64,000 nt of DNA, taken from the NCBI GenBank assembly GCA_040954595.2, contig CM082586.2:10013337-10077336 (forward strand). Direction: 5' to 3'. Shown here one piece after another: positions 1,898 through 18,149 of this stretch. This stretch comes from Balanoglossus misakiensis. Lineage: Eukaryota; Animalia; Hemichordata. The notes under the pieces were generated by a model that saw only the letters and a program-made list of their open reading frames with translations, was not told where the DNA came from and searched no databases. Numbering within the stretch: position 1 is the stretch's first letter; each line of letters opens with the position of its first letter. A program made the translations under genes and the position numbers.

Positions 1898-2216
1898 GTT
1901 TTATCGTTTTGTTGTGCATTTGTTTGTATACTATCATAAATTGTTGCCATATAGTGGAGACCATGGTTTTGATAGGTAGAGATTCTGCAAATTGTGAAGA
2001 CGGTGCTGGGTCTGTAGGCTGGTACTGTTACTGTATGTGCGCTTGTGGTTTCCTGCTATATAATATGGGCCGTGTTGGTTTGCGTCGTGCGTTTGGCTGT
2101 GTTGACTTGTGCTGAATGCCCTGTACTGCTAGGGGTTGTCAAACTGGGGGTTGTAAATCGCGATACAGCAAAGCATATATGCAGAAAGAATATCTAAGAT
2201 AGGGAGAAAATTTGGG

Positions 2217-3989
2217 TTGGAAGGGACTGCTTTAAAAGATTATGTTAGAGAGGAACAAATTAGACAGAGGGATCTTAGGGCTACTGAGAGAGAGGAGCAG
2301 AGAGAAGATAATAGGCGGCGCGAGGAACATGAGAGAGAGATACTGAAAATGCAAATTCACTTACAAGAATTAAAATTGAAAGGGGAAAATACAGAACAGC
2401 AGGTTACTGAAAATAATTTGGCCAAAGCGCGTGCTCCGAGACTACAGGGTTTTCGTGAGGATGTTGATGATATGGATGCGTACCTTCAACGTTTTCAGCG
2501 CTACGCCACTGCTCAGAAGTGGGAAAAAGATGACTGGGGGTGAATCTCAGTGCATATTGTTACAAGGTAAGGATGTATCCACATACAACCAAATGCCTGC
2601 AGCGTCTGCAAATAATTATGATGAATTGAAACCAGAGTTATTGAGGGCTTACCAGTTAAGTGAGGAGAGTTTTCATGACAAGTTCCGTTCGTGTATGCCA
2701 CATTATGATGAAAGTGCTCAAAAGTTTATGGACCGTATTGGTGACTATTTGGGCAGATGGGTAGAACTGGCTGGTACTCCAAAGACGTACAATGGGCTTA
2801 CAGATCTGTTACTTCGAGAGCAGTTTATTGGAGTATGTTCCAGAGACATGGCAATGTTCATTAGAGAGCGACGGCCAGAGAATGTCCAAGAGATGGTATC
2901 TACTGCCTCAAAATACTTAGATGCCCGAGGGTGGTGGAAACTGCCAAGTAATGCCAAGAATAATCCAAGGAGCCAGCCGACAGCAAATACCAAGCCTTCT
3001 GTATATCCAAATCAAGTAAATAAGTTTAATAACAAAACCAATGGTTCCCATGTTTTTAAAGGTACGTGCTTCGTATGTGGTAAAGGTGGTCATATGGCCA
3101 AAGATTGTAGAAGTAAGCCAAAGATGCATAAGACGGCGGTATTGTTAACTGAAGAAGATAGAAACTATCCACCTAAACAAGAATGTACACATTGGGGCAA
3201 CCGTCAACAGCCCAGGGGACTAGACACTGGTTATGCATGTATGGTGGTAGCAATGGAAATAGATAAAACAGATGCAACACTGAATAAGGAGTTCGTGTTA
3301 CCATGTGGTCATAAGCTCCCAGTGATGAGTGCTGCTTGTAGTGCCCATGGAGTGAAGAAGATGCCGGTAATGAAGGGATTGCTCGATGGTAAGCTGGTTA
3401 GCGTTTTGCGTGATAGTGGGTGTAGTAGCGTGGTAGTTCGAAGAAGTCTGGTGTCAAGTAATCAGCTGACTGGTGAGTACAGGACGTGTGTTCTGATAGA
3501 TGGGACTATTAGAAGAGTACCTGTAGCCTCTATAAAAGTTGATACCCCTTACTTTGTTGGTGATGTTACTGCACTGTGCATGATGAACCATGTGTATGAT
3601 TTAATACTGGGCAACATTGATGGTGTATCTGACCCTTCGAATCCTGATACTACATGGCAGGAACCATTGCCGACATGTAGACTGTGTACAACTGTTGGAC
3701 AGGTACCAGGTTTAGCAAATGCTGTGGAGACCAGAGCCCAGAAGATAGCCAACCAAAAACCAATCAGAGAGCTTAAAGTACCTAAAGCTGTTGGTGAAGT
3801 GGTGATGCCAGGGAAGCTTCAACAAGCTCAAGAAGAAGACTCCACTCTTGACAAACTACGTGAGAAGGCAATTTTGGGTGACGAGAAAGTGACTAGGAAT
3901 GGAGGTAGGTTGAAGTTCATCATGAAAGATGGGATCCTGTACAGAGAGTTCAATTCGCCAATGGTCCAATTTGGTGAAAAGCTGTTACA
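2217..3989 (+). pseudogene. gag-protease-(integrase N-terminal linker) of the Gmr1-like element
   Basis: Coiled-coil N-terminus, DAYLQRFQRYA..W gag motif, frameshift near 2540, capsid/SCAN-like region (LLREQF...FIRERRP), CFVCGKGGHMAKDC zinc knuckle, VLRDSGCS aspartic protease, LQQAQEEDSTL...KDGILYR. The last ~33 aa of ORF 2431-4092 are read-through into the inserted transposon. Confidence 0.9.
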
Positions 3990-4029
3990 CACTGCGGGAA
4001 ATACTAGAGCTATGTTGGGCAGTATTCCG
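3990..4029 (+). repeat. Left bipartite terminal inverted repeat
   Basis: CACTGCGG - 18 nt - TGGGCAGTATTCCG; the inner block starts at nt 27 from the end (4016). Confidence 0.85.
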
Positions 4030-4073
4030 CGAAGCGCGAGCTCCCATGTTCACCATAGCAACGCATTGCCAAG

Positions 4074-4724
4074 ATGGCGGCGCCCGTGTTGATCGATGCC
4101 GAGAAAGTTATAAAACGCAAATTGCGAGAGGCAAAATCTGTGCTTAAACGTAAAAAATGCGTGTCGGACAATCTGTATATACACCCACTCTTTGATGAAC
4201 TTGAGGATGTGACAACAAGGGCCATATTTCGAAACGACAAGCTGTCAAAGGACAAGATTCGTTGGCGTGACGTCGCCGTATTTCCCATGTTTCAGCGTGA
4301 TATGACCTACTGGCAGAAGACCTTCTACGCTCGGCTGTCAACATCCCCGTCGTTAAGGTCACCATGGCAAAGCAGCTTTACACGACAAATGCCGAGGGAA
4401 GTATTTGATGTTTTTCATCAGTTTGCTACTCGGACCGGTTTTGGTATCGACGAGAAGACCTCCAGGGCTATCATAACCTTGACCTTCACAAGTTCCTTGA
4501 AGCTATTGTATGTGATACGGAAAGGTTATTGCTACGAGGGCGCTATCGGTCAGCATACAGAGAATATCCTAGAGAAGAAAGTCCGTGGAAAGAGGGTAGC
4601 TGTTATATTCACACCTGAGAAGCCCTGTGTTGTGAAATATTTTATCAACAGGGAGACTGTTGCTGTTAGATTCAGCTTTGGTGCCTGGAACAAACATGGA
4701 ATTCCATTACATCCAGAGAACTGA
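4074..4724 (+). CDS. 216-aa basic protein of unknown function, second gene of the DNA transposon
   Basis: Uninterrupted ORF with a good ATG context (AAGATGGCG), more GC-rich than the AT-rich sequence downstream, AATAAA at ~4853. No domain recognised; no kelch or PHD pattern seen. Confidence 0.7.
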   Translation: MAAPVLIDAEKVIKRKLREAKSVLKRKKCVSDNLYIHPLFDELEDVTTRAIFRNDKLSKDKIRWRDVAVFPMFQRDMTYWQKTFYARLSTSPSLRSPWQSSFTRQMPREVFDVFHQFATRTGFGIDEKTSRAIITLTFTSSLKLLYVIRKGYCYEGAIGQHTENILEKKVRGKRVAVIFTPEKPCVVKYFINRETVAVRFSFGAWNKHGIPLHPEN

Positions 4725-5576
4725 ACCCTATTGATTTTTCACACTGATTCAACCCATCTGAGGAACATTTTTTTCCTGATCTGTGGCACATGTTGTTCAG
4801 TGTAGATGTATCAGTCTGTCAAGACAGTCCTCTCACAATTGACATATATTCAAATAAAAAAAGGAAAATTAGAAGACTCAAAAATTCATCACTTGTCTTT
4901 ATTTATCTACATTCAATACAAATGAACAGATAATGTTTACAAAATTTCCTAAACTGTAAAATTCTTTTTTTCCATCATTATTGTAACATAGATTTTTCAT
5001 TAGTTTCAGAAAAAAATGTATGTTACCTACAATCAACATTGATAAGTCAATCAAAACTGCTCATCTAACAGTTAACCAGGATTTCTGGTCTAAATTTAAT
5101 TAATATTTACAATTAATTCCATGACAAAATTTATAAATATCAAGAATTTGATGAGACTTAATTCTTTATTTTTTCACAAATTCATTAAAATTTCGTGCAG
5201 GTGCAGAATAAACAACTCCTCAAGAAAAATGTAAAACTTTTCTATCAAGCTTATGTATGTCATACATTTTAATTTTGCAAAGCACTGCAATCACTATACG
5301 ATTAAGGGTTTATTCACAATACTTAATAGTGGTAAGATAAGTTTCAATTTCCCTGTCCCCATACATGCACACATATACAAAATCCCATAAGAAACATATC
5401 ATCTCCAGTTCAAAAAGTGTGAATTCATGTGATTTGTGATCTCCATTTTTATTAAATGCAGCTCTCAACTACAGATGAGTCTTTATAATTCTGTAATGTA
5501 ATTAATACTATAGTTATCCTTTAATTCTAAAGTAGCACACAGTGACACAATCCACTGTTTCAAATTCAATCATTGT

Positions 5577-8500
5577 TCACAGCATAAGTTTCTTGAGTTT
5601 ATTTGATATTTTACCAGTGACAGCTGCTTTTTTTATGTCATCCATAATTGGGTCAACACATATTTCACAGGCAGTCATTGTTTCATTTTTTTAAATTGCC
5701 ACACATACAGTAGCCTGCATTCTCATAATATCGACTGGGAATGTATTTTTCTTTTTCTTTAAGCTCAAATTGACCTACATTTGCATTTCTATAGTTGTCA
5801 GCTTTTGGACTTTTGTTCCTCAGCCAAAAAAGCATCACATATTCGTGTCGAAATATGAGGGCCCACCTATTTTGAGGTGTAGAATTTTCACTGAATTCTA
5901 GCAGGCGTAGATGCTTTGCCTCTCTGCCTTCCATTGTGTTTAGGCCTAATCCCAGACTGAATTGCTTATAGATACTAGTGGTGTGTTTTGGGACTACATA
6001 ACCAATGTGCCACACAGTATTATTGACATTCAGAAACAGGGAATGTAGATTAAAGTACCACCGACACTTATGCCTAAGTACAAGCAAATCTCCCTCATTT
6101 ATGTTGAATCGTGAGAATAACAAAGTGATATCTCTAAGCAAGATACCAGTATATGTGTAGAGAGCTAATTGAGCCCGACGCTTTGGTCTGTCTGTATCGC
6201 TTCTCAATGCTAATACCAATCCTATGAAATGCCAAGCAAGTTTGCGAGACTCCTCACCAGTGAAGCGATAAACCACATTAATGTTGGCATTTGACTTGAC
6301 ACTATTTTCATTGAAGTATTTTACAATCTTATTATACAACTTTCCAGCTTTTACTTGATATTTTAGGGCAGACAGGAATTTGTACAGATATGACTCGTTA
6401 GGTAGATTCTCAATTTTAACTCCATTTTCACGACCCTTTTCCGAAGTGTGGGCAACTGCGTCAATCAGTAATCGTTGGAAGTAGTATTGCCATGCATTGT
6501 TCTTTAAATGCAATGGCTCAGCCTTGGCACAATCAATAAATCTACCCAACGGTGGTACAAATTCCTGTCTTGACCTCAGACTGGCTATAAATTGTGTGAT
6601 TTTGGGTCGCACTGTTTTGGGCTTTCCAGTTTTAATTTTCTTAGTTGACTTCAACTTTTCAACAGCTTCTGCATCTTTAATTCTTTTCTGATATTTCCAT
6701 TCATCCCACTTCTGACCTGGGCCAATTTCTGCTCCAATACAATCAATATCATTTTTGGAACGTTAGCAAATGAGCTGAAATACTTTGCTGCATTGCTTAG
6801 TTCTCCAGACACACTGGCCAATCCCTTCTGATCAAAGGGTAAAAGTGACACCTGAAAAGTTACATCAAGACTGCCAACTTTATATTTACGTTTCTCAATA
6901 CACTCAAGGTCTTTTGACAATGCAATTGCAAATTCAATCATTATGGGGTCATCCTCTTTTATGTTTGCCCCTAATAGGAGAAAATTGTGGTCTGGGCTAG
7001 CAACACGGTGGGTCACATTCAAGAAACTAACTAGCCATGCAGTGGCCTGTCCATGTTTGCCAAACGGAGCCCCGTCAGCACCTATACTGATTTGAAATGA
7101 GCCCTCCTGTTTACCGAACCAGTTAAGAATATCAGGCTGTGTTTCCCCCATATTTAAATATAAACTGGCAATCTTAATAAGCAACTCCTCAGGGTTTCTT
7201 TTTAAGCCGACTTGTTTGCCTTCAGATGATATAATTGGCTCAAGATTTCCAATGTCAAGGTTACTTACATACTGTACAACTTTTGTGTATGGGAGCAGTC
7301 TTGGTATTCTACAGCCAGAATGAATTTCTAATGCTTTCCTAGGATGTTTCAAGTTGGAGAACATCTGAAGTTCACTCTGCCTCAGACAGTTATATTTTCG
7401 TTTGGATAGTACTCCGCCCTCATACATAGTTCTGACACTCCTCACCAAATTGTTCTCACTTTTCTCAAATTTACTGATGTATTTATCAAATACTGATGGC
7501 ATTACTTTTTTACTGATTTGGGGAGAGGTTCTGAAGAATGTTTTCATTTGGTCAGGAGTGGCAGAATTAACAAGAGTATACCACAAACCATCAAGTGCTG
7601 CTTTTGGTGGATGTAGTACATTCGGTTTATTTATACCTTTGGCTGGGCTTACATCTGTAGTTGCTACATGAATATTTATGGCTGCTGATAAGGTTTCACA
7701 CCTACGTTCATACTGTTGACGTCGCGACAGCTTCAAAGATTCACTATTATCTGCACATACTTCAGTGTTCTTGTGGACCCATTTAGAGCGTTTCACATTA
7801 ACAACATCAACAGGAATCTGAAAGATTAAGTGTGTGATAAATATATACTAATTAGAATATAATCATTATATATAAAATAAAATCTTCTTACAAGTTAATC
7901 ATTAATTTAAATGTCCTTGATAAGAAATACACACGTGTAGCCTGTATTTTTCTGACAACTTCTGCAATAAAAATCCTAAAAAATATACATAGTTTGTTGG
8001 AAAACCTAGATGTTTTGCATCAAAGCTGAACCCATTTTGTTATCATTGTTTACACAGGATCATGTGACATGAAGTTCAAAAAGCGAATTTGGGCTAAAAT
8101 TTGAAGAGGATTTATACAAATCTGAGATTTTTAAAATTATGACTAAGTCTATTTATCTGATCTAGCTTACCTTTCTCTTATTATTCTTTGTAGCTAAGAT
8201 CTCACAAATCTTACTGTTCTTCTTCTCTAGTCTAGCTAGCTGGGTTGAGGATCTTTTTACTAGTCTCCTAGCTGCACTCAACTTATTCAACTTATCCTGA
8301 ATTATGCTTTCTTCCTCATCTCTCTTTCTCTTTCTCTGTCTACACCACTCTCCTAAGTTAAACCTGTGTTTAGTCTGTCCTCTCTTTGTTCTAACTACCA
8401 ATAGGTTGTTGGCCACGCTCCCAGACAAAGATCTAGTCTTCAATTTCTCCTGATATAGTTGTTGTAAACACTTCTCTTCAGCTACCTGTCTCGCTATCTT

Positions 8501-8614
8501 TTGGTCCTTTGCCCACTGGCCTATGTTGAAGTAACTTTTCCCTTTTCTATTCGGCATAACAATAGACAAACTTTTAAGAAGTGCGCTACTCCTGTTGAAT
8601 AGTTTGCCCCACAT
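5577..8614 (-). pseudogene. Spliced RAG1/Transib/Chapaev-like DDE transposase (~890 aa after repairing two 1-bp frameshifts)
   Basis: Exon 8614-8171 (phase-0 donor AAG|GTAAG), intron 8170-7818, exon 7817-5577 (TTTCAG| acceptor, phase 0). Motifs collinear with the RAG1 core: LSRRQQYERR (NBD-like), ISIGADG (D600-like), PFDQK (D708-like), EPLH (H795-like), RFTGEESRK (MNGNFARK-like), MEGREAKH (E962-like). Frameshifts at ~6760 (FANV/SKNDID) and in the A7 run at ~5690. Confidence 0.8.
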
Positions 8615-9422
8615 GGCTCTAAATCTATACCTGAAAAGGGTGAACAAGAGAAATATCTTTACAATAATTATCTATCCGAGGGAAGCAAAAACAAAACACC
8701 TGCTCATTATACTTCCTCCAGAAATTGAGGTCAAAGGTGACATAGAAAGAATGTGGGTAACCTTACCATAACAATCTCGCCCATTCATTTTTTTCTTATT
8801 TCGTTTTCACCCTCGAATTTCCAGCGAATTATATCAAGAATATATTTTAGCACAAACTATTGGTTTCTGATTTTTCAGTTACGGTCTTATTTTCTGTCAA
8901 TTCTATGAACAATATCACCATGTCGCCGAAAATTCGAAGCGCCGCCATTACAATCAATGTAACCCGTGCTGCTGCCAAGGAACACACAGGGTCGTATATT
9001 TTCGCTTGGTATGATTTCGTCATATTGCTTGTAGCAGCATTTTAAACATGGAATCCTATGTTTACGTATAAAAGACTAAATTCGTATGGTTTTCAAATTG
9101 AAAAAAACAATTCTGTGAAGCTGAATCGTTGTAATTTTTAGTGTTTGTTTATGGTTGCTTAGGACGGCTTCTGCTATAGCAACGGCCAGGGACTGTCAGC
9201 GGGTGATCAAAATGTTCAAGTTATTTGGCTGATACACATAAATAACACAGCAGAATCGCAACTTTATTTCATATTGTCTCTGACATCTTGCTAATTTTAC
9301 TAAACAAAACTTGGAATAAAGCAATATTACTCACCGAATTATGCTGTGCATCGACAGCTGTGTTCGATCGCGAACGCCATTACTGTGTCTAATTAAATAT
9401 TCATGAGCTTCATAGGCTGCCA

Positions 9423-9463
9423 CGGAAATACTGCCCATAGGTGGCGTCGTTCAAGCTGTAGTG
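9423..9463 (-). repeat. Right bipartite terminal inverted repeat
   Basis: Reverse complement reads CACTACAG - 18 nt - TGGGCAGTATTTCCG; the inner block also starts at nt 27 from the end. Confidence 0.85.
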
Positions 9464-10545
9464 ACAGGTGGTGGTTCCCAGAGTGTATCGTAACCAGGTG
9501 ATGAGACTAGCCCATGAATCAGTGCTGGGTGGTCACCACGGAACTCACAAGACCACAGACAAGATCCTCAGCAACTTCGTTTGGCCTGGGCTAACATCAG
9601 ATGTTTCCCGTTACTGTCAGTCCTGTGATTCATGTCAACGGACACAACCAAAGGGACGGGTGACCAAGGTACCACTTGGAAGTATGCCACTAATAGATAT
9701 CCCTTTCCTACGTATTGCAGTAGACCTGGTTGGCCCTATTCATCCATGCACTGAACGCAAGAATAGGTACATACTTACTGTTGTTGATTATGCAACACGC
9801 TATCCGGAGGCTGTTGCATTGACTAACATTGATACCAAGACTGTTGCAGAGGCGCTCCTGGACATCTACTCAAGAGTGGGGTGTCCACGTGAAATTCTGA
9901 CAGATCAAGGAACTCAATTTACATCAGATGTGATGCGTGAGGTCAGCCGGCTTTTGTCTATAAAGCAGATGACTACCACCCCATACCACCCAGCATTCAA
10001 TGGTCTAGTGGAACGGTTCAATGGTACATTGAAACTCATGCTCAGGAAGATGTGTGAGGAACGTCCAACATATTGGGATCGTTATCTGAATGCTTTACTA
10101 TTTGCCTACAGAGAAACGCCTCAATCGAGCACAGGATTCTCTCCGTTTGAGTTACTTTATGGGAGGAGTGTGCGTGGTCCAATGGCTATCTTGAAAGAAC
10201 TATGGACTGGAGAGATCAGTGAACCAGAAACCAAAACGACTTATCAATACATCCTTGATCTTCAAAAGAAATTAAAGAAGGCATGCGATTTAGCAAGACA
10301 AGAACTGAAGATATCACAAGGCAAATACAAGTCCTACTACAATAGAAAGGCCAAATGGAGGAAGTTCAACAAAGGTGACGAGGTGTTATTGCTACTACCT
10401 ACTGACCATAATAAACTACTTATGCACTGGAAGGGTCCTTTTCCAGTGGTGGAGAAAGCGAGCAATATGGATTACAAGATTGACTTTGGTCATAGGGTGA
10501 AAACATTCCATGCCAACCTGTTGAAGAGGTACTATCGAAGAACTG
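9464..10545 (+). pseudogene. Integrase domain of the Gmr1-like element
   Basis: HHCC (LAHESVLGGHHG...CQSCDSC), DDE (AVDLVGP, LTDQGTQF, VERFNGTLK), GPF/Y module (WKGPFPV...FHANLLK). Confidence 0.95.
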
Positions 10546-10759
10546 ATCAGCTAGATGAAGTATCAGCTGGACTTCTTGAGATTGTGTGTGTATCTGTGAT
10601 AGATGAGCAGAGTTATGAATCTTCAGAAGTACAAGAGAACACAGGGGTTAAAGTAAACGATGACTTACTGCGGGTTCCTGCATTCAAGCAGAAAGAATTT
10701 GCTGCAGATGTGAATGTATGTGACAACTTGTCAGACATACAGAAGCAAGTGGTGAGGAG

Positions 10760-11475
10760 GTTGCTGATCAATTACAAAGATATGTTAACTGATATTCGTG
10801 GTAACACCAACCTGGGTTTCCATGACATCAAGTTGATGGATCCAACACCAGTATGCAGTAGGCCATACCCCATCCCTCATGCACTCCGTGAAGCAGTGAA
10901 AGATGAAGTCAAAACGATGATTAAGATGGGAGTAGCTGAACCTTCAGAGAGTCCATATGCTGTTCCACTGGTAATGGTGAAGAAATCTGATGGGTCCAAT
11001 CGTTGTTGTGTTGACATGAGAAAGCTCAATCGCATAACAGTGTTTGATGCAGAGCCTACACCAGACCTGAGTGAGCTTTTTGCTTTTTGCTAAGTTATCC
11101 AAGGATCACTATTTCACTAAAGTAGATCTCAGCAAAGAATATTGGCAAGTCCCGTTGACTGATAATTCTAAACAATTGACGGCATTTATCACGCATGATG
11201 GGCTATACCAATTTATCAAAATGCCTTTCGGACTTGTAAATAGTGCTGCGACTTTTAGCAGAATTATGAGAAGATTGTTAAGAGATATGAAGAACGTAGA
11301 CAACTATATCGATCACATACTGATCCACACTGCATCATGGGAAGAACATATCAAGACAATTACAGATTTGATGAGCAGACTACGAAAGGCAAAGTTAACA
11401 GCGAGACCAACTAAGTGTTATGTGGGTTATGAGCAGATCGATTTCCTGGGTCATGTGGTTGGTCATGGTGAACTA
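10760..11475 (+). pseudogene. Reverse transcriptase domain (frameshifted, catalytic YIDD changed to YIDH, truncated)
   Basis: SPYAVPLVMVKKSDGSNRCCVDMRKLN, frameshift ~11080, DLSKEYWQV, MPFGLVNSAATF, YIDHIL, KC...FLGH. Confidence 0.93.
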
Positions 11476-11623
11476 GTCCTGTTTCAAAATGACCTACATT
11501 ACAGGTCCTATGCACACGTATTACATGTTCTGATTGGTTTATCCACTTCTCTAAGGTCCACTTGCGGCTCGCTGATTGGAGGGACCTTATGTGTTAGGTC
11601 ATATTACTATGTATTATTCACCA

Positions 11624-11829
11624 GACCTTGTAGGTTAGGTCTTATTACAATGCATTATTCACTTTACAGCTCCCTGATTGGTTAATGTGTAGGTCTGGTC
11701 CTCCAGTGTTCACTGCCTCATTATGCAGGACCTTGTAGGTTAGGTCTTATTAATATGTATTTATTCACCATACAGCTCCCTGATTGGTTAACGTGTCAGT
11801 CTGGTCCCCCCAGTGTTCACTGCCTCATT
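11624..11829 (+). repeat. Two ~105-bp tandem units (plus a degenerate upstream partial) in the sequence that replaces the retroelement 3' half
   Basis: GACCTTGTAGGTTAGGTCTTATTA...CAGCTCCCTGATTGGTTAA...CCAGTGTTCACTGCCTCATT starting at 11624 and at 11729. Confidence 0.8.
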
Positions 11830-12821
11830 GTGAAATGTCCCATGTGCTTCCTGGCTAGCGTTGTGGTAACATATTATTCGGGGTGTCCGCAGATCGTTCA
11901 TTGATTTTCTGAGAAATAGCCTAACTGATACTATCTCCAACATAAACCGCACCCTGGAAAGATTAAATGATCTTTTAGGTGGACTTTGAAAATCTGATTA
12001 ACTCATCTAAGCATTTTAGCTAAGTTGTATATTTTTTAATTATAATCATACAAAATACTTAAAAAATAAAAACAATGTTCAGTTTTAATACCCACTGATG
12101 AGGGGAAACATCAGTTTCAAATTCTTTTCATGGGAGCGCTTGAGCAGAGTTATGAGTTTTGCTCTGTGAAAGAAAATGGGGGGATTTCAAAATTTTGGCA
12201 GTTCGGAAGGGGGATTTCAAAATATTTCGGGTTGTGAAAGGGGGGGGGGGCATGTGAAAATTAGCGGTAAAAGATGAATTCCCCCCCCCCCCCTCCAGAG
12301 GTGTTTGTGAATGCAGCCTAAGAAAGAAAAAATGTGAAATGGGTCAAATATGGGCCGGACGTGCCCATTCAACTCAATTTACTTTTGTTTGCTTTAAGTA
12401 GGAATTGATCACAGCTATATTTATTTTGGACACCTGAGCGACAAGAAAACAATCTGATTCTACATTTTAAAAAGCGTCATTGGAAAAGCACTGCAATTTT
12501 GTTTCTTGCTTTAAAAAAGTTTGGGGTGGCATGTAATAATTAAGGTGTGTCTAAATTACTAATTTGGTGCACCTCAAAGCCCTTAGCCAATGTAAATTAT
12601 ATCCTGCATTGTATTCATGAAGGATATCCTCCCGCGAGGTCAATGCCATTCAATGTCAAACAGTCTCAACAAAGACCATTGGACACTCATAGCCGTTTTG
12701 TATGAAAGTGACTGGAGTACGAGATGAGTTTCATGACAACAACAAATCATGCTCAGTCTCGCTGCAGGGTCTATAATTTCAATAACGGCTAGACGCTGGA
12801 CACTATCTTAGGTAACACTTT

Positions 12822-16795: not shown

Positions 16796-17165
16796 TTGAT
16801 TAAACACGTTTATCGGAAAATTTTGTCATTTGAAATATCTGTTTTTGCGCCCTCTACCATTTGACCAAATGATTCTCTTATTTTGGTGGCCTTTGTCTGT
16901 GTATATGAGAATACTATAGTACTCTCGCATCGATCATAGTAGAAGTTGATAACGTCTCTTGCCACGTGGCCTGGAAGAAAGGCGATCTTTAGAGTAAAAA
17001 AAACAAACTATCCAGATAGGAAGCTAGAAAAGAAGTTGAATCGTTGAAATTTTATTTATTTTATATTGTTAATATCGTTGGTGATGTTGACTGGCCGACA
17101 ATCTTTGTCACACGAGTCTTTGCAGGCAGATTAAAACATTGCCTATTCCAGCAATAATCACAACA
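16796..17165 (+). repeat. Direct-repeat copy 2 of the window start
   Basis: TTGATTAAACACGTTTATCGG...GCAATAATCACAACAG matches 1-373. Confidence 0.92.
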
Positions 17166-18149
17166 GGAGTGTGTCACACAGGAGACAGTTGGGATTATAG
17201 TCATAATCTACCTTAGTTTGTTGTCAACAACCAGATGTGGTCGCATTCCGTGCATCCGTGCATATTTTGGAACAACGACTCTATCGAACAGACGTATTTC
17301 AAACACCTTGGAGAAAAACATCGATGACCAGTGGAATTGACTGTCGCTTGAAATCCGATAGGAATACACCTGTTTACGGTGGACGATACCGACACTCCTC
17401 TGCTAACTTAATCTGCTCTGCTAACTATACCTGCTTTGATTAAGTTGCGTCTAAAACTTTCCTTACAATACAATGTGGGTCTCGACTGTCGGTCCCAACT
17501 ATAGCGACGACAGCCTCGGTATGTTTCGCCGATAGCAATCCGGAGATGAAATTTGCATACAGCAATATCTTTCAAGATAAATAATTTATGTCCTAAAGGT
17601 ATTACTTTTAGTGGTCTGACGGAGACGTTTTCTGCTGTAACATGCAAAACCTGCGGCGGACCTGAGGTCATGTTGCGAACACTGTAGTTTTGTTACGCCC
17701 GCCATCCTTCGGACGTTTACCTCATCGGGGCTTCTTTGGGGAATCAGCCACGTCCGAAGGGTGAGAGTGTAAATTCTCTCCCTCTCCTTCTCCACCCAAC
17801 ATATTCATAGAGTCAGAGAGAGGTACCCGGCATATCGTAAACTTAACGAGAGGCATAACGAGACTTTCAACAAGTTTTCCGAGTAACACAAATAGTTGTG
17901 GTTTATTACTGGTCACACGTAAGAATTACACGACTCTATCCATGCTCGTTGACTCCCGTCACGGATCTCCGGTGATAATAATGTGATATCAAATTTCACC
18001 ACCTCTTATTAATACGTTAGTCAAGTATTATGTCATAAAAGGAACACGTCATCTTAATATTTCTTAAACATGAACTTAGCGCGTGATATCTCTATCTCGT
18101 TCTGACATGTATCAATTACACAATCTTGTTTACTCTGAGTCAAATACCT

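Follow-up and report, generated by a model that had tools for sequence, protein, structure and literature searches.

A two-gene DNA transposon family with a predicted RAG1/Transib-type transposase and a convergent second gene that does not resemble RAG2

We analysed a 64,000-nucleotide stretch of Balanoglossus misakiensis DNA (assembly GCA_040954595.2, contig CM082586.2, positions 10,013,337 to 10,077,336 of the forward strand; hereafter the window), in which a DNA transposon with two convergent genes lies inserted in a Gypsy retrotransposon. One gene encodes a transposase with a fold predicted to be of RAG1/Transib type and the other, open reading frame 2 (ORF2), a smaller protein that occupies the place held by RAG2 in ProtoRAG. 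The transposon and its host consist of the following features (TSD, target-site duplication; RT, reverse transcriptase).

3990..9463, no strand assigned: the whole two-gene DNA transposon, 5,474 bp, delimited by its ends, TSD and codon phase
3987..3989, plus strand: left TSD copy, ACA, in flanking sequence
9464..9466, plus strand: right TSD copy, ACA, in flanking sequence
3990..4034, plus strand: ORF2-side end, CACTGCGGG, with inner box TGGGCAGTATT at 4016-4026
9419..9463, minus strand: transposase-side end, CACTACAGC, with an identical inner box TGGGCAGTATT at 9437-9427, at equal distance from the tip
4074..4724, plus strand: ORF2, 216 aa, intact, modelled with a helical N-terminal half and an alpha/beta C-terminal half; PF26709 in homologues
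8171..8557, minus strand: transposase exon 1, 129 aa, with an alternative ATG at 8614; splice sites placed from GT/AG and frame
7818..8170, minus strand: putative phase-0 GT-AG intron
5577..7817, minus strand: transposase exon 2, with frameshifts near 6760 and 5690; it encodes D at 7076-7074, D at 6833-6831, the LH motif, E at 5922-5920 and the C-terminal CxC-x10-CxxC
2157..3989, plus strand: host Gypsy ahead of the insertion, with a SCAN- and CCHC-knuckle-bearing gag and a protease-like part; outside the transposon
9464..11490, plus strand: host Gypsy beyond the insertion, with integrase preceding a truncated RT; outside the transposon

The codon phase is equal at 3987 and 9464, so that the two flanks continue each other in a single Gypsy pol frame, and the Pfam matches run from SCAN, zf-CCHC and a weak protease in the upstream flank to integrase and then RT in the downstream flank. 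This host, at 2157-11490, has SCAN in its gag and integrase ahead of the truncated RT, an order that we take to be Gmr1-type; a pair of long terminal repeats (LTRs) was not established. The tips of the transposon are CACT at 3990 and AGTG at 9463, the left one reading CACTGCGGG and the right one the reverse complement of CACTACAGC; the ends are CACTG and CACTA, with 6 of 9 bases identical between the tips, and the 11-bp box TGGGCAGTATT stands at positions 27-37 from each. A second register, starting at 3988 with a 1-bp duplication, is possible from the window alone, and we favour the one at 3990 because the 11-bp box is then equidistant from the tips and because relatives make 3-bp TSDs. That 3990-9463 is a real two-gene transposon inserted in a Gypsy pol frame is thereby confirmed. 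A first-pass annotation made from the letters alone had proposed these boundaries, the CACT ends, the ACA duplication, a pol frame restored by excision and two convergent genes with an intact ORF2, all of which proved correct; it had overlooked the intron, the bipartite form of the ends and the missing C(2)C zinc pair described below.

ORF2 starts 84 bp inward of the left end and carries the conserved motifs PW..R.LP.E.F and, at its C terminus, G.WN..G.P.H. The transposase runs on the minus strand from an ATG at 8557 across the putative intron at 8170-7818 to a stop at about 5577, and its rebuilt protein, with X inserted where the frame breaks, is 876 aa long, or 895 aa from the upstream ATG at 8614, against a first estimate of ~890 aa. 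A basic motif following the ATG at 8557 recurs in five long homologues from coral, nemertean and annelid. Read evidence, covering 2200-11700, came from a single matching sample, possibly the window's own source. Both frameshifts were repeated in contigs of this sample, while one contig of run X2 carried an additional base at 6758 that may reflect an allele or a mistake in the sequence. Both junctions were crossed by single contigs and depth inside the element equalled depth outside, for which reason we see neither a near-identical copy elsewhere nor an empty allele in this sample, with 13 of 56 loose contig ends listed. As assembled, the window copy cannot make a full transposase, whereas its ORF2 and ends are intact. 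The suggestion that it is a young copy with active relatives was upheld in part; intact elements exist at other loci (L006 and L081, below).

On long contigs of run X1 over the element and its Gypsy flanks (2200-11474), word depth was ~1500-2000, and three diverged related contigs stood at 114-262; perhaps the whole region belongs to an amplified unit, although word depth is no copy number. Diverged relatives of the element, ~80-85% alike, occur in the same sample, with matches to 4015-4128, 6303-6388 and 6797-6863; one of them, a 1,123-bp contig, matches the ORF2 start and then again a region near the ORF2 end.

The C-terminal piece of the transposase matched 76 proteins, each at least 630 aa long. 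The closest came from Ptychodera flava (75% identity), and others, at 32-44%, from Acropora, Porites, Desmophyllum, Actinia, Lineus and Owenia, giving the family hemichordate, coral, anemone, nemertean and annelid hosts. Among the matches listed, all homologues with a source name are uncharacterized, hypothetical or unnamed. The core piece reached 635 representatives at E <= 0.001. The family is abundant in corals, and one cluster has 531 members. No relatives were found in viral contigs, where the motif patterns of Chapaev3, Transib and RAG1 gave chance matches only, and prokaryote genomes yielded a single relative (L081). The proteins P0064-P0075 form a well-supported subgroup of ~800-aa transposases for which no locus was present among those checked.

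We counted motifs in 71 aligned transposases, numbered as in the Ptychodera flava homologue P0001. The catalytic residues D181 and E566 were present in all 71 and D262 in 70; the LH motif was found in all 71 and the C-terminal CxC-x10-CxxC tail in 67-69. No protein had a CxxC within 40 residues past the second D (0 of 71), and the C(2)C zinc motif is thus absent from the family; H(3-4)H ahead of the catalytic E was present in 30 of 71 and its second His in 69. The expectation of core motifs collinear with those of RAG1 was hence borne out for DDE and LH and failed for the zinc pair. The E-x-x-H found past the catalytic glutamate also occurs in Chapaev, and the D-to-E spacing of ~300 aa exceeds that of RAG1 and Transib. 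R451 is invariant and lies three residues ahead of an invariant glycine. To judge by its spacing, R451 may mark the position of R848, the RAG1 gatekeeper against transposition: R848 suppresses transposition, and invertebrate enzymes have methionine there (PMC10629977). Inspection by eye of exon 1 of the window transposase and of the N termini of several homologues showed no Cys/His cluster, and no RING or N-terminal zinc-finger region was noted in the family. Pfam transposase families, including EnSpm and Plavaka, had no match to 52 members at E <= 1 among the best 25 of 49 rows (lowest E of any of these rows 0.015), and the EnSpm transposase profile had none to the core pieces of the window transposase.

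An AlphaFold model of P0001 (predicted local distance difference test [pLDDT] score 90) matched RAG1 in Foldseek with an E value of 2e-11, followed by HzTransib (2.4e-7), BbRAG1L (2.5e-6) and the P-element transposase (2.6e-3). VIA-align likewise ranked RAG1 first (Z 21.9, root-mean-square deviation 3.9, 466 residues aligned), then BbRAG1L (Z 19.7), HzTransib (14.1), the P element (12.1) and Hermes (6.2), with sequence identities of 8-13% across the matches. We thus predict a RAG1/Transib-type fold for the family transposase. No Chapaev or EnSpm structures were among the matches of either program, and we know of none that has been solved; since they are missing from the lists, the fold assigns the family to the RAG1/Transib/CMC radiation without giving its place there.

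For the linkage of ORF2 to the transposase, we used the best 80 of 224 confirmed metagenome stretches and, with L081 added, 81 loci. Window ORF2 alone found homologues in 29 of the 80 at E <= 2e-4, all on the opposite strand and downstream of the transposase. A profile derived from the loci gave 33 strong and 3 weak matches among the 81, the weak ones showing the conserved C-terminal motif past an apparent splice site; 43 loci were too short to be assessed, and two (L018 and L042) had no match despite at least 1.5 kb of sequence. Convergent ORF2 homologues thus occur at 36 of the 38 assessable loci, and L018 is a relative of L081 with a 4-kb gap. Among 26 ORF2 pairs at 45-97% identity, the synonymous rate dS was computable in 13 and saturated in 13 further pairs (45-57% identity); for 12 of the 13 computable pairs the ratio of nonsynonymous to synonymous rates (dN/dS) lay between 0.15 and 0.54, indicating that ORF2 is under purifying selection. 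Across 18 elements, one per family, the transposase and ORF2 distance matrices were correlated (Spearman 0.59, 0 of 5000 permutations). The two trees also had four clades in common. Mean identity was 24% for ORF2 and 42% for the transposase, ORF2 being the faster-evolving gene. ORF2 belongs to the element and is no passenger. A divergent branch has a seemingly intron-containing ORF2 in which the last exon alone is recognisable (L033:4117-4359, L037:3250-3534 and L049:3555-3839).

As a protein, ORF2 is less easily placed. Used alone as a query it had no match among the database proteins; the locus-derived profile did find homologues there, and 20 of 22 of these carry PF26709, so that the protein family is already catalogued in some form. 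Pfam and PDB sequence searches returned nothing meaningful for either ORF2 or the transposase. In the ORF2 model (pLDDT 80, built from 21 sequences) three long helices lead into a seven-stranded mixed alpha/beta domain, and a kelch propeller of RAG2 type is absent. Foldseek gave no PDB row at E <= 0.001 and weak rows at E 0.1-0.3 for SPARTA chains and the RNA-binding KA1 and RnlA domains. A wide structural search was dominated by the N-terminal helices (best Z 7.5), a second one with the C-terminal domain reached Z <=4.9 (YwmB, RnlA and BamC type), and the best viral structural match had a template-modelling (TM) score of 0.16. The modelled ORF2 appears to be without a clear structural match, an absence that does not establish a new fold. 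A language-model search pointed to Argonaute N/L1/PAZ clusters at 0.93, below the reliability marks of the tool (recognition 1361 against 2300; shared features 140 against 170), and this lead was not upheld: a homologue gave no usable match, and no Argonaute chain was among the 50 rows of the second structural search. Nor is ORF2 a copy of some part of the transposase (hhalign probability 0.1).

In multi-copy families the similarity ends abruptly at CACG(C/G)(C/T)GGG, which precedes the start of ORF2 by 70-124 bp, and the same motif marks the opposite, transposase-side end. Left and right ends agree across ~15 bp and again near positions 29-33; later end searches required the motif, and its frequency there is therefore circular. 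Both ends were located in 14 elements, of which three were dropped, L075 for its single flanking base and L056 and L057 for decayed right ends, none of them with a matching TSD. Among the remaining 11 complete elements, five had exact 3-bp TSDs (ACA, GAT, ATT, AGC and ATA) and one a 2-bp match, while TSDs of 4, 5 or 6 bp were found in none. With a chance of 0.019 per element, five of 11 has P ~1e-6. At two loci, L006 and L081, the transposase frame is unbroken and is accompanied by ORF2, both ends and a TSD. L081:6241-14782 is a complete 8.5-kb element within a 294-bp satellite, other units of which carry a single ATA or a variant and so give direct empty-site evidence. Its contig is assigned to an Anaerolineae metagenome-assembled genome; the 294-bp satellite array and the lack of any other long open reading frame tell against a bacterial copy, and in all likelihood the contig comes from an animal and was binned with the bacterium in error. 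A RAG1-type fold, a partner other than RAG2, and relatives with the same convergent ORF2 and 3-bp TSDs had all been anticipated from the window, and each was recovered, the first two in predicted models.

Near the transposase-side end, some families (L075:285-470, L081:6781-7116 and L054:3128-3240) contain a degraded inverted duplicate of their ORF2 end that includes part of the ORF2 coding sequence, as one would expect had the terminal repeats been long in the past.

Set against known transposons, the family resembles ProtoRAG/RAGL (BbeRAG1L-RAG2L, families A-D) in its predicted RAG1-type fold, two convergent genes, CAC tips, Cys-rich C-terminal tail, bipartite ends and hosts including hemichordates, nemerteans and cnidarians. 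It differs in that RAG2L is a six-bladed kelch propeller and ORF2 a 205-255 aa alpha/beta protein; in having no C(2)C and a CxC-x10-CxxC tail where RAGL has the ZnC2 pair and Cx2Cx3GHx4C; in having no RING region and no detectable sequence similarity; and in its 3-bp TSD, a 5-bp TSD being included in the RAGL definition (PMC7204232). Lacking RAG2L, the 5-bp TSD and ZnC2, and with a different tail, the family is not RAGL. Transib (HzTransib; subgroups I and II; the Nozomi lineage) is alike in fold (Z 14.1), CAC ends, DDE and LH, but has the C(2)C that is absent here, whereas the family has its ~300-aa D-to-E spacing; in the available part of PMC10629977 Transib is without a RAG2-like gene, and no second gene is described there, against ORF2 at 36 of our 38 assessable loci. 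TSD length weighs little, and 3 bp alone is undiagnostic, because it varies within Transib, some of which have 3-bp TSDs (bioRxiv 10.64898/2026.08.26.747230).

Chapaev and Chapaev3 share with the family the CAC...GTG ends, the 3-bp TSD and the LH motif. They differ from it in their C(2)C and in having no conserved second gene, and may differ in their H(4)H, H(3-4)H being present in 30 of our 71 proteins, and in their N-terminal Chapa zinc finger (with or without RING), no Cys/His cluster having been seen by eye; Chapaev3, moreover, has the TSD TWA. EnSpm/CACTA, Mirage, Plavaka, ESTA and Lanisha are alike in CA...TG ends and 2-5 bp TSDs, and CACTA elements, too, employ a second protein; these and the other CMCT groups differ from the family in its consensus CACG(C/G)(C/T)GGG, its convergent genes and its lack of C(2)C, stated as common to all CMCT lineages (PMC12730594). 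By the description of Kojima (2025), the family has the CA...TG termini, a TSD in the 2-5 bp range and the DDE core of CMCT, but not the C(2)C and, for the most part, not the H(3-4)H of its motif definition. The family thus behaves like a CMCT element yet fails the CMCT motif definition, and it is neither Chapaev3, having no TWA and no C(2)C, nor a single-gene Transib. No description of it was found in the literature searched, which did not extend to Dfam, Repbase Reports, supplements of bioRxiv papers or the bulk of subscription papers, and a full-text search for its protein motifs did not find them among the matches listed, mostly primers. By comparison with the descriptions of known groups, we regard it as a new lineage of CMC/Transib-type transposons.

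That the family is nevertheless in Repbase or Dfam already, as Chapaev, EnSpm, Transib or unclassified, with the window element a new member, we hold unlikely, if a serious contender. Its abundance in corals, the existence of a Pfam accession for ORF2 and the Chapaev hallmarks of CAC...GTG termini with 3-4 bp TSDs (PMC4079192) would fit such a reading; the zinc motif missing from all 71 proteins, five TSDs that are not TWA, the "uncharacterized" and "hypothetical" names of the listed homologues, the lack of a Pfam transposase on 52 members and the silence of the literature searched argue against it.

We consider it reasonably likely (probability about 0.6) that this is a cut-and-paste two-gene family with a RAG1/Transib-fold DDE transposase, CAC bipartite ends and a 3-bp stagger, and with ORF2 as a likely accessory factor. 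The transposase would pair the two ends and cut at their CAC tips; to judge from the fold, cleavage may take the nick-hairpin route of RAG and Transib (chemistry as in PMC10629977). The cut ends would then be joined to the target, and the TSDs show that this happens with a 3-bp stagger. Binding of the ends is probably a task of the four-cysteine tail, as it is of the C-terminal tail in BbRAG1L (PMC7204232). ORF2, by analogy in the place held by RAG2 in ProtoRAG yet apparently unrelated to it, would act as an accessory subunit on the transposase or the ends, and perhaps compensates for the lost zinc site or assists target capture.

Several observations weigh against this reading. No sequence or profile query reached RAG1, Transib or a Pfam transposase, and, for want of a sequence-level match, the residue equivalences rest on motif spacing known from RAG1. 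The fold is that of P0001, 70-75% identical to the window transposase, and not of the broken window protein itself. The 81 loci amount to ~17 families and are not 81 independent cases, and at L042 ORF2 is lacking in 6.1 kb of downstream sequence, albeit in a 5'-truncated copy without the end motif. One ORF2 pair (L066/L068, 97% identical) had a dN/dS of 1.36. Flanks did not match in six of the 11 complete elements; at least one of these is a chimeric assembly, as L054 and L058 have a common left flank and different right ones, and the rest are unexplained. Matching trees of linked genes imply co-inheritance, not interaction or binding, and co-inheritance and selection fit a regulator or an anti-silencing protein too.

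The last point leads to a second alternative, the same transposon with an ORF2 that aids its persistence from outside the transpososome, for which the accessory proteins of some plant elements provide the model. All the co-inheritance and selection data are compatible with it, the faster evolution of ORF2 would suit it, and the Argonaute clusters and the SPARTA, KA1 and RnlA rows point the same way; with the Argonaute signal under the marks of the tool and not recovered by homologue or structure, we think this rather improbable. A derived RAGL branch, with RAG2L replaced by an unrelated gene instead of a two-gene invention made independently, is very doubtful: the identical layout, the Cys-rich tail, the bipartite ends and the higher Z for RAG1 and BbRAG1L than for HzTransib recommend it, but Z rises with domain size too, the tail, the 3-bp TSD and the missing RING or N-terminal zinc-finger region disagree, and identity to RAG1 is 9-13% in the structural alignment, against an average of 26% between RAG1L and Transib cores (PMC9435367).

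The rest of the window is rich in repeats. The Gypsy RT is cut off by a high-copy repeat at 11480-11830 with internal units of 41 bp and 106 bp and very high depth in both runs. Two direct copies of a 373-bp repeat, at 1-373 and 16796-17166, are 97.6% identical and separated by 16.8 kb; they may represent an LTR or else a repeat of dispersed type. From 18150 to 64000 extends ~46 kb of AT-rich satellite with units of 27-29, 78 and 105-107 bp in both orientations, within which a 153-156 bp repeat-bounded spacer lies at ~20.2-23.3 kb.

Returning to the two-gene transposon, we suggest tentatively, at somewhat less than even odds, that its family is an undescribed superfamily-level branch of RAG1-fold transposases which lost the zinc site, retains an invariant arginine where R848 may lie, has a 3-bp stagger and independently recruited an obligatory partner, its fold without a match, into the convergent layout of RAG1 and RAG2, and thus represents a parallel origin of a two-subunit RAG-like system. 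The origin of V(D)J recombination raises the questions of how a single-gene Transib-like enzyme came to need RAG2 and which changes curbed transposition. A family with a predicted RAG1 fold, the same layout and a different partner would be a natural parallel experiment on the contribution of a partner to such a fold, on the need for the zinc site and on the determinants of a stagger of 3 bp as opposed to 5 bp. The intact elements L006 and L081 make such experiments practical and may offer a new gene-transfer tool, and the link to a transposon gives a role to the anonymous PF26709 and to hundreds of "uncharacterized" coral proteins.

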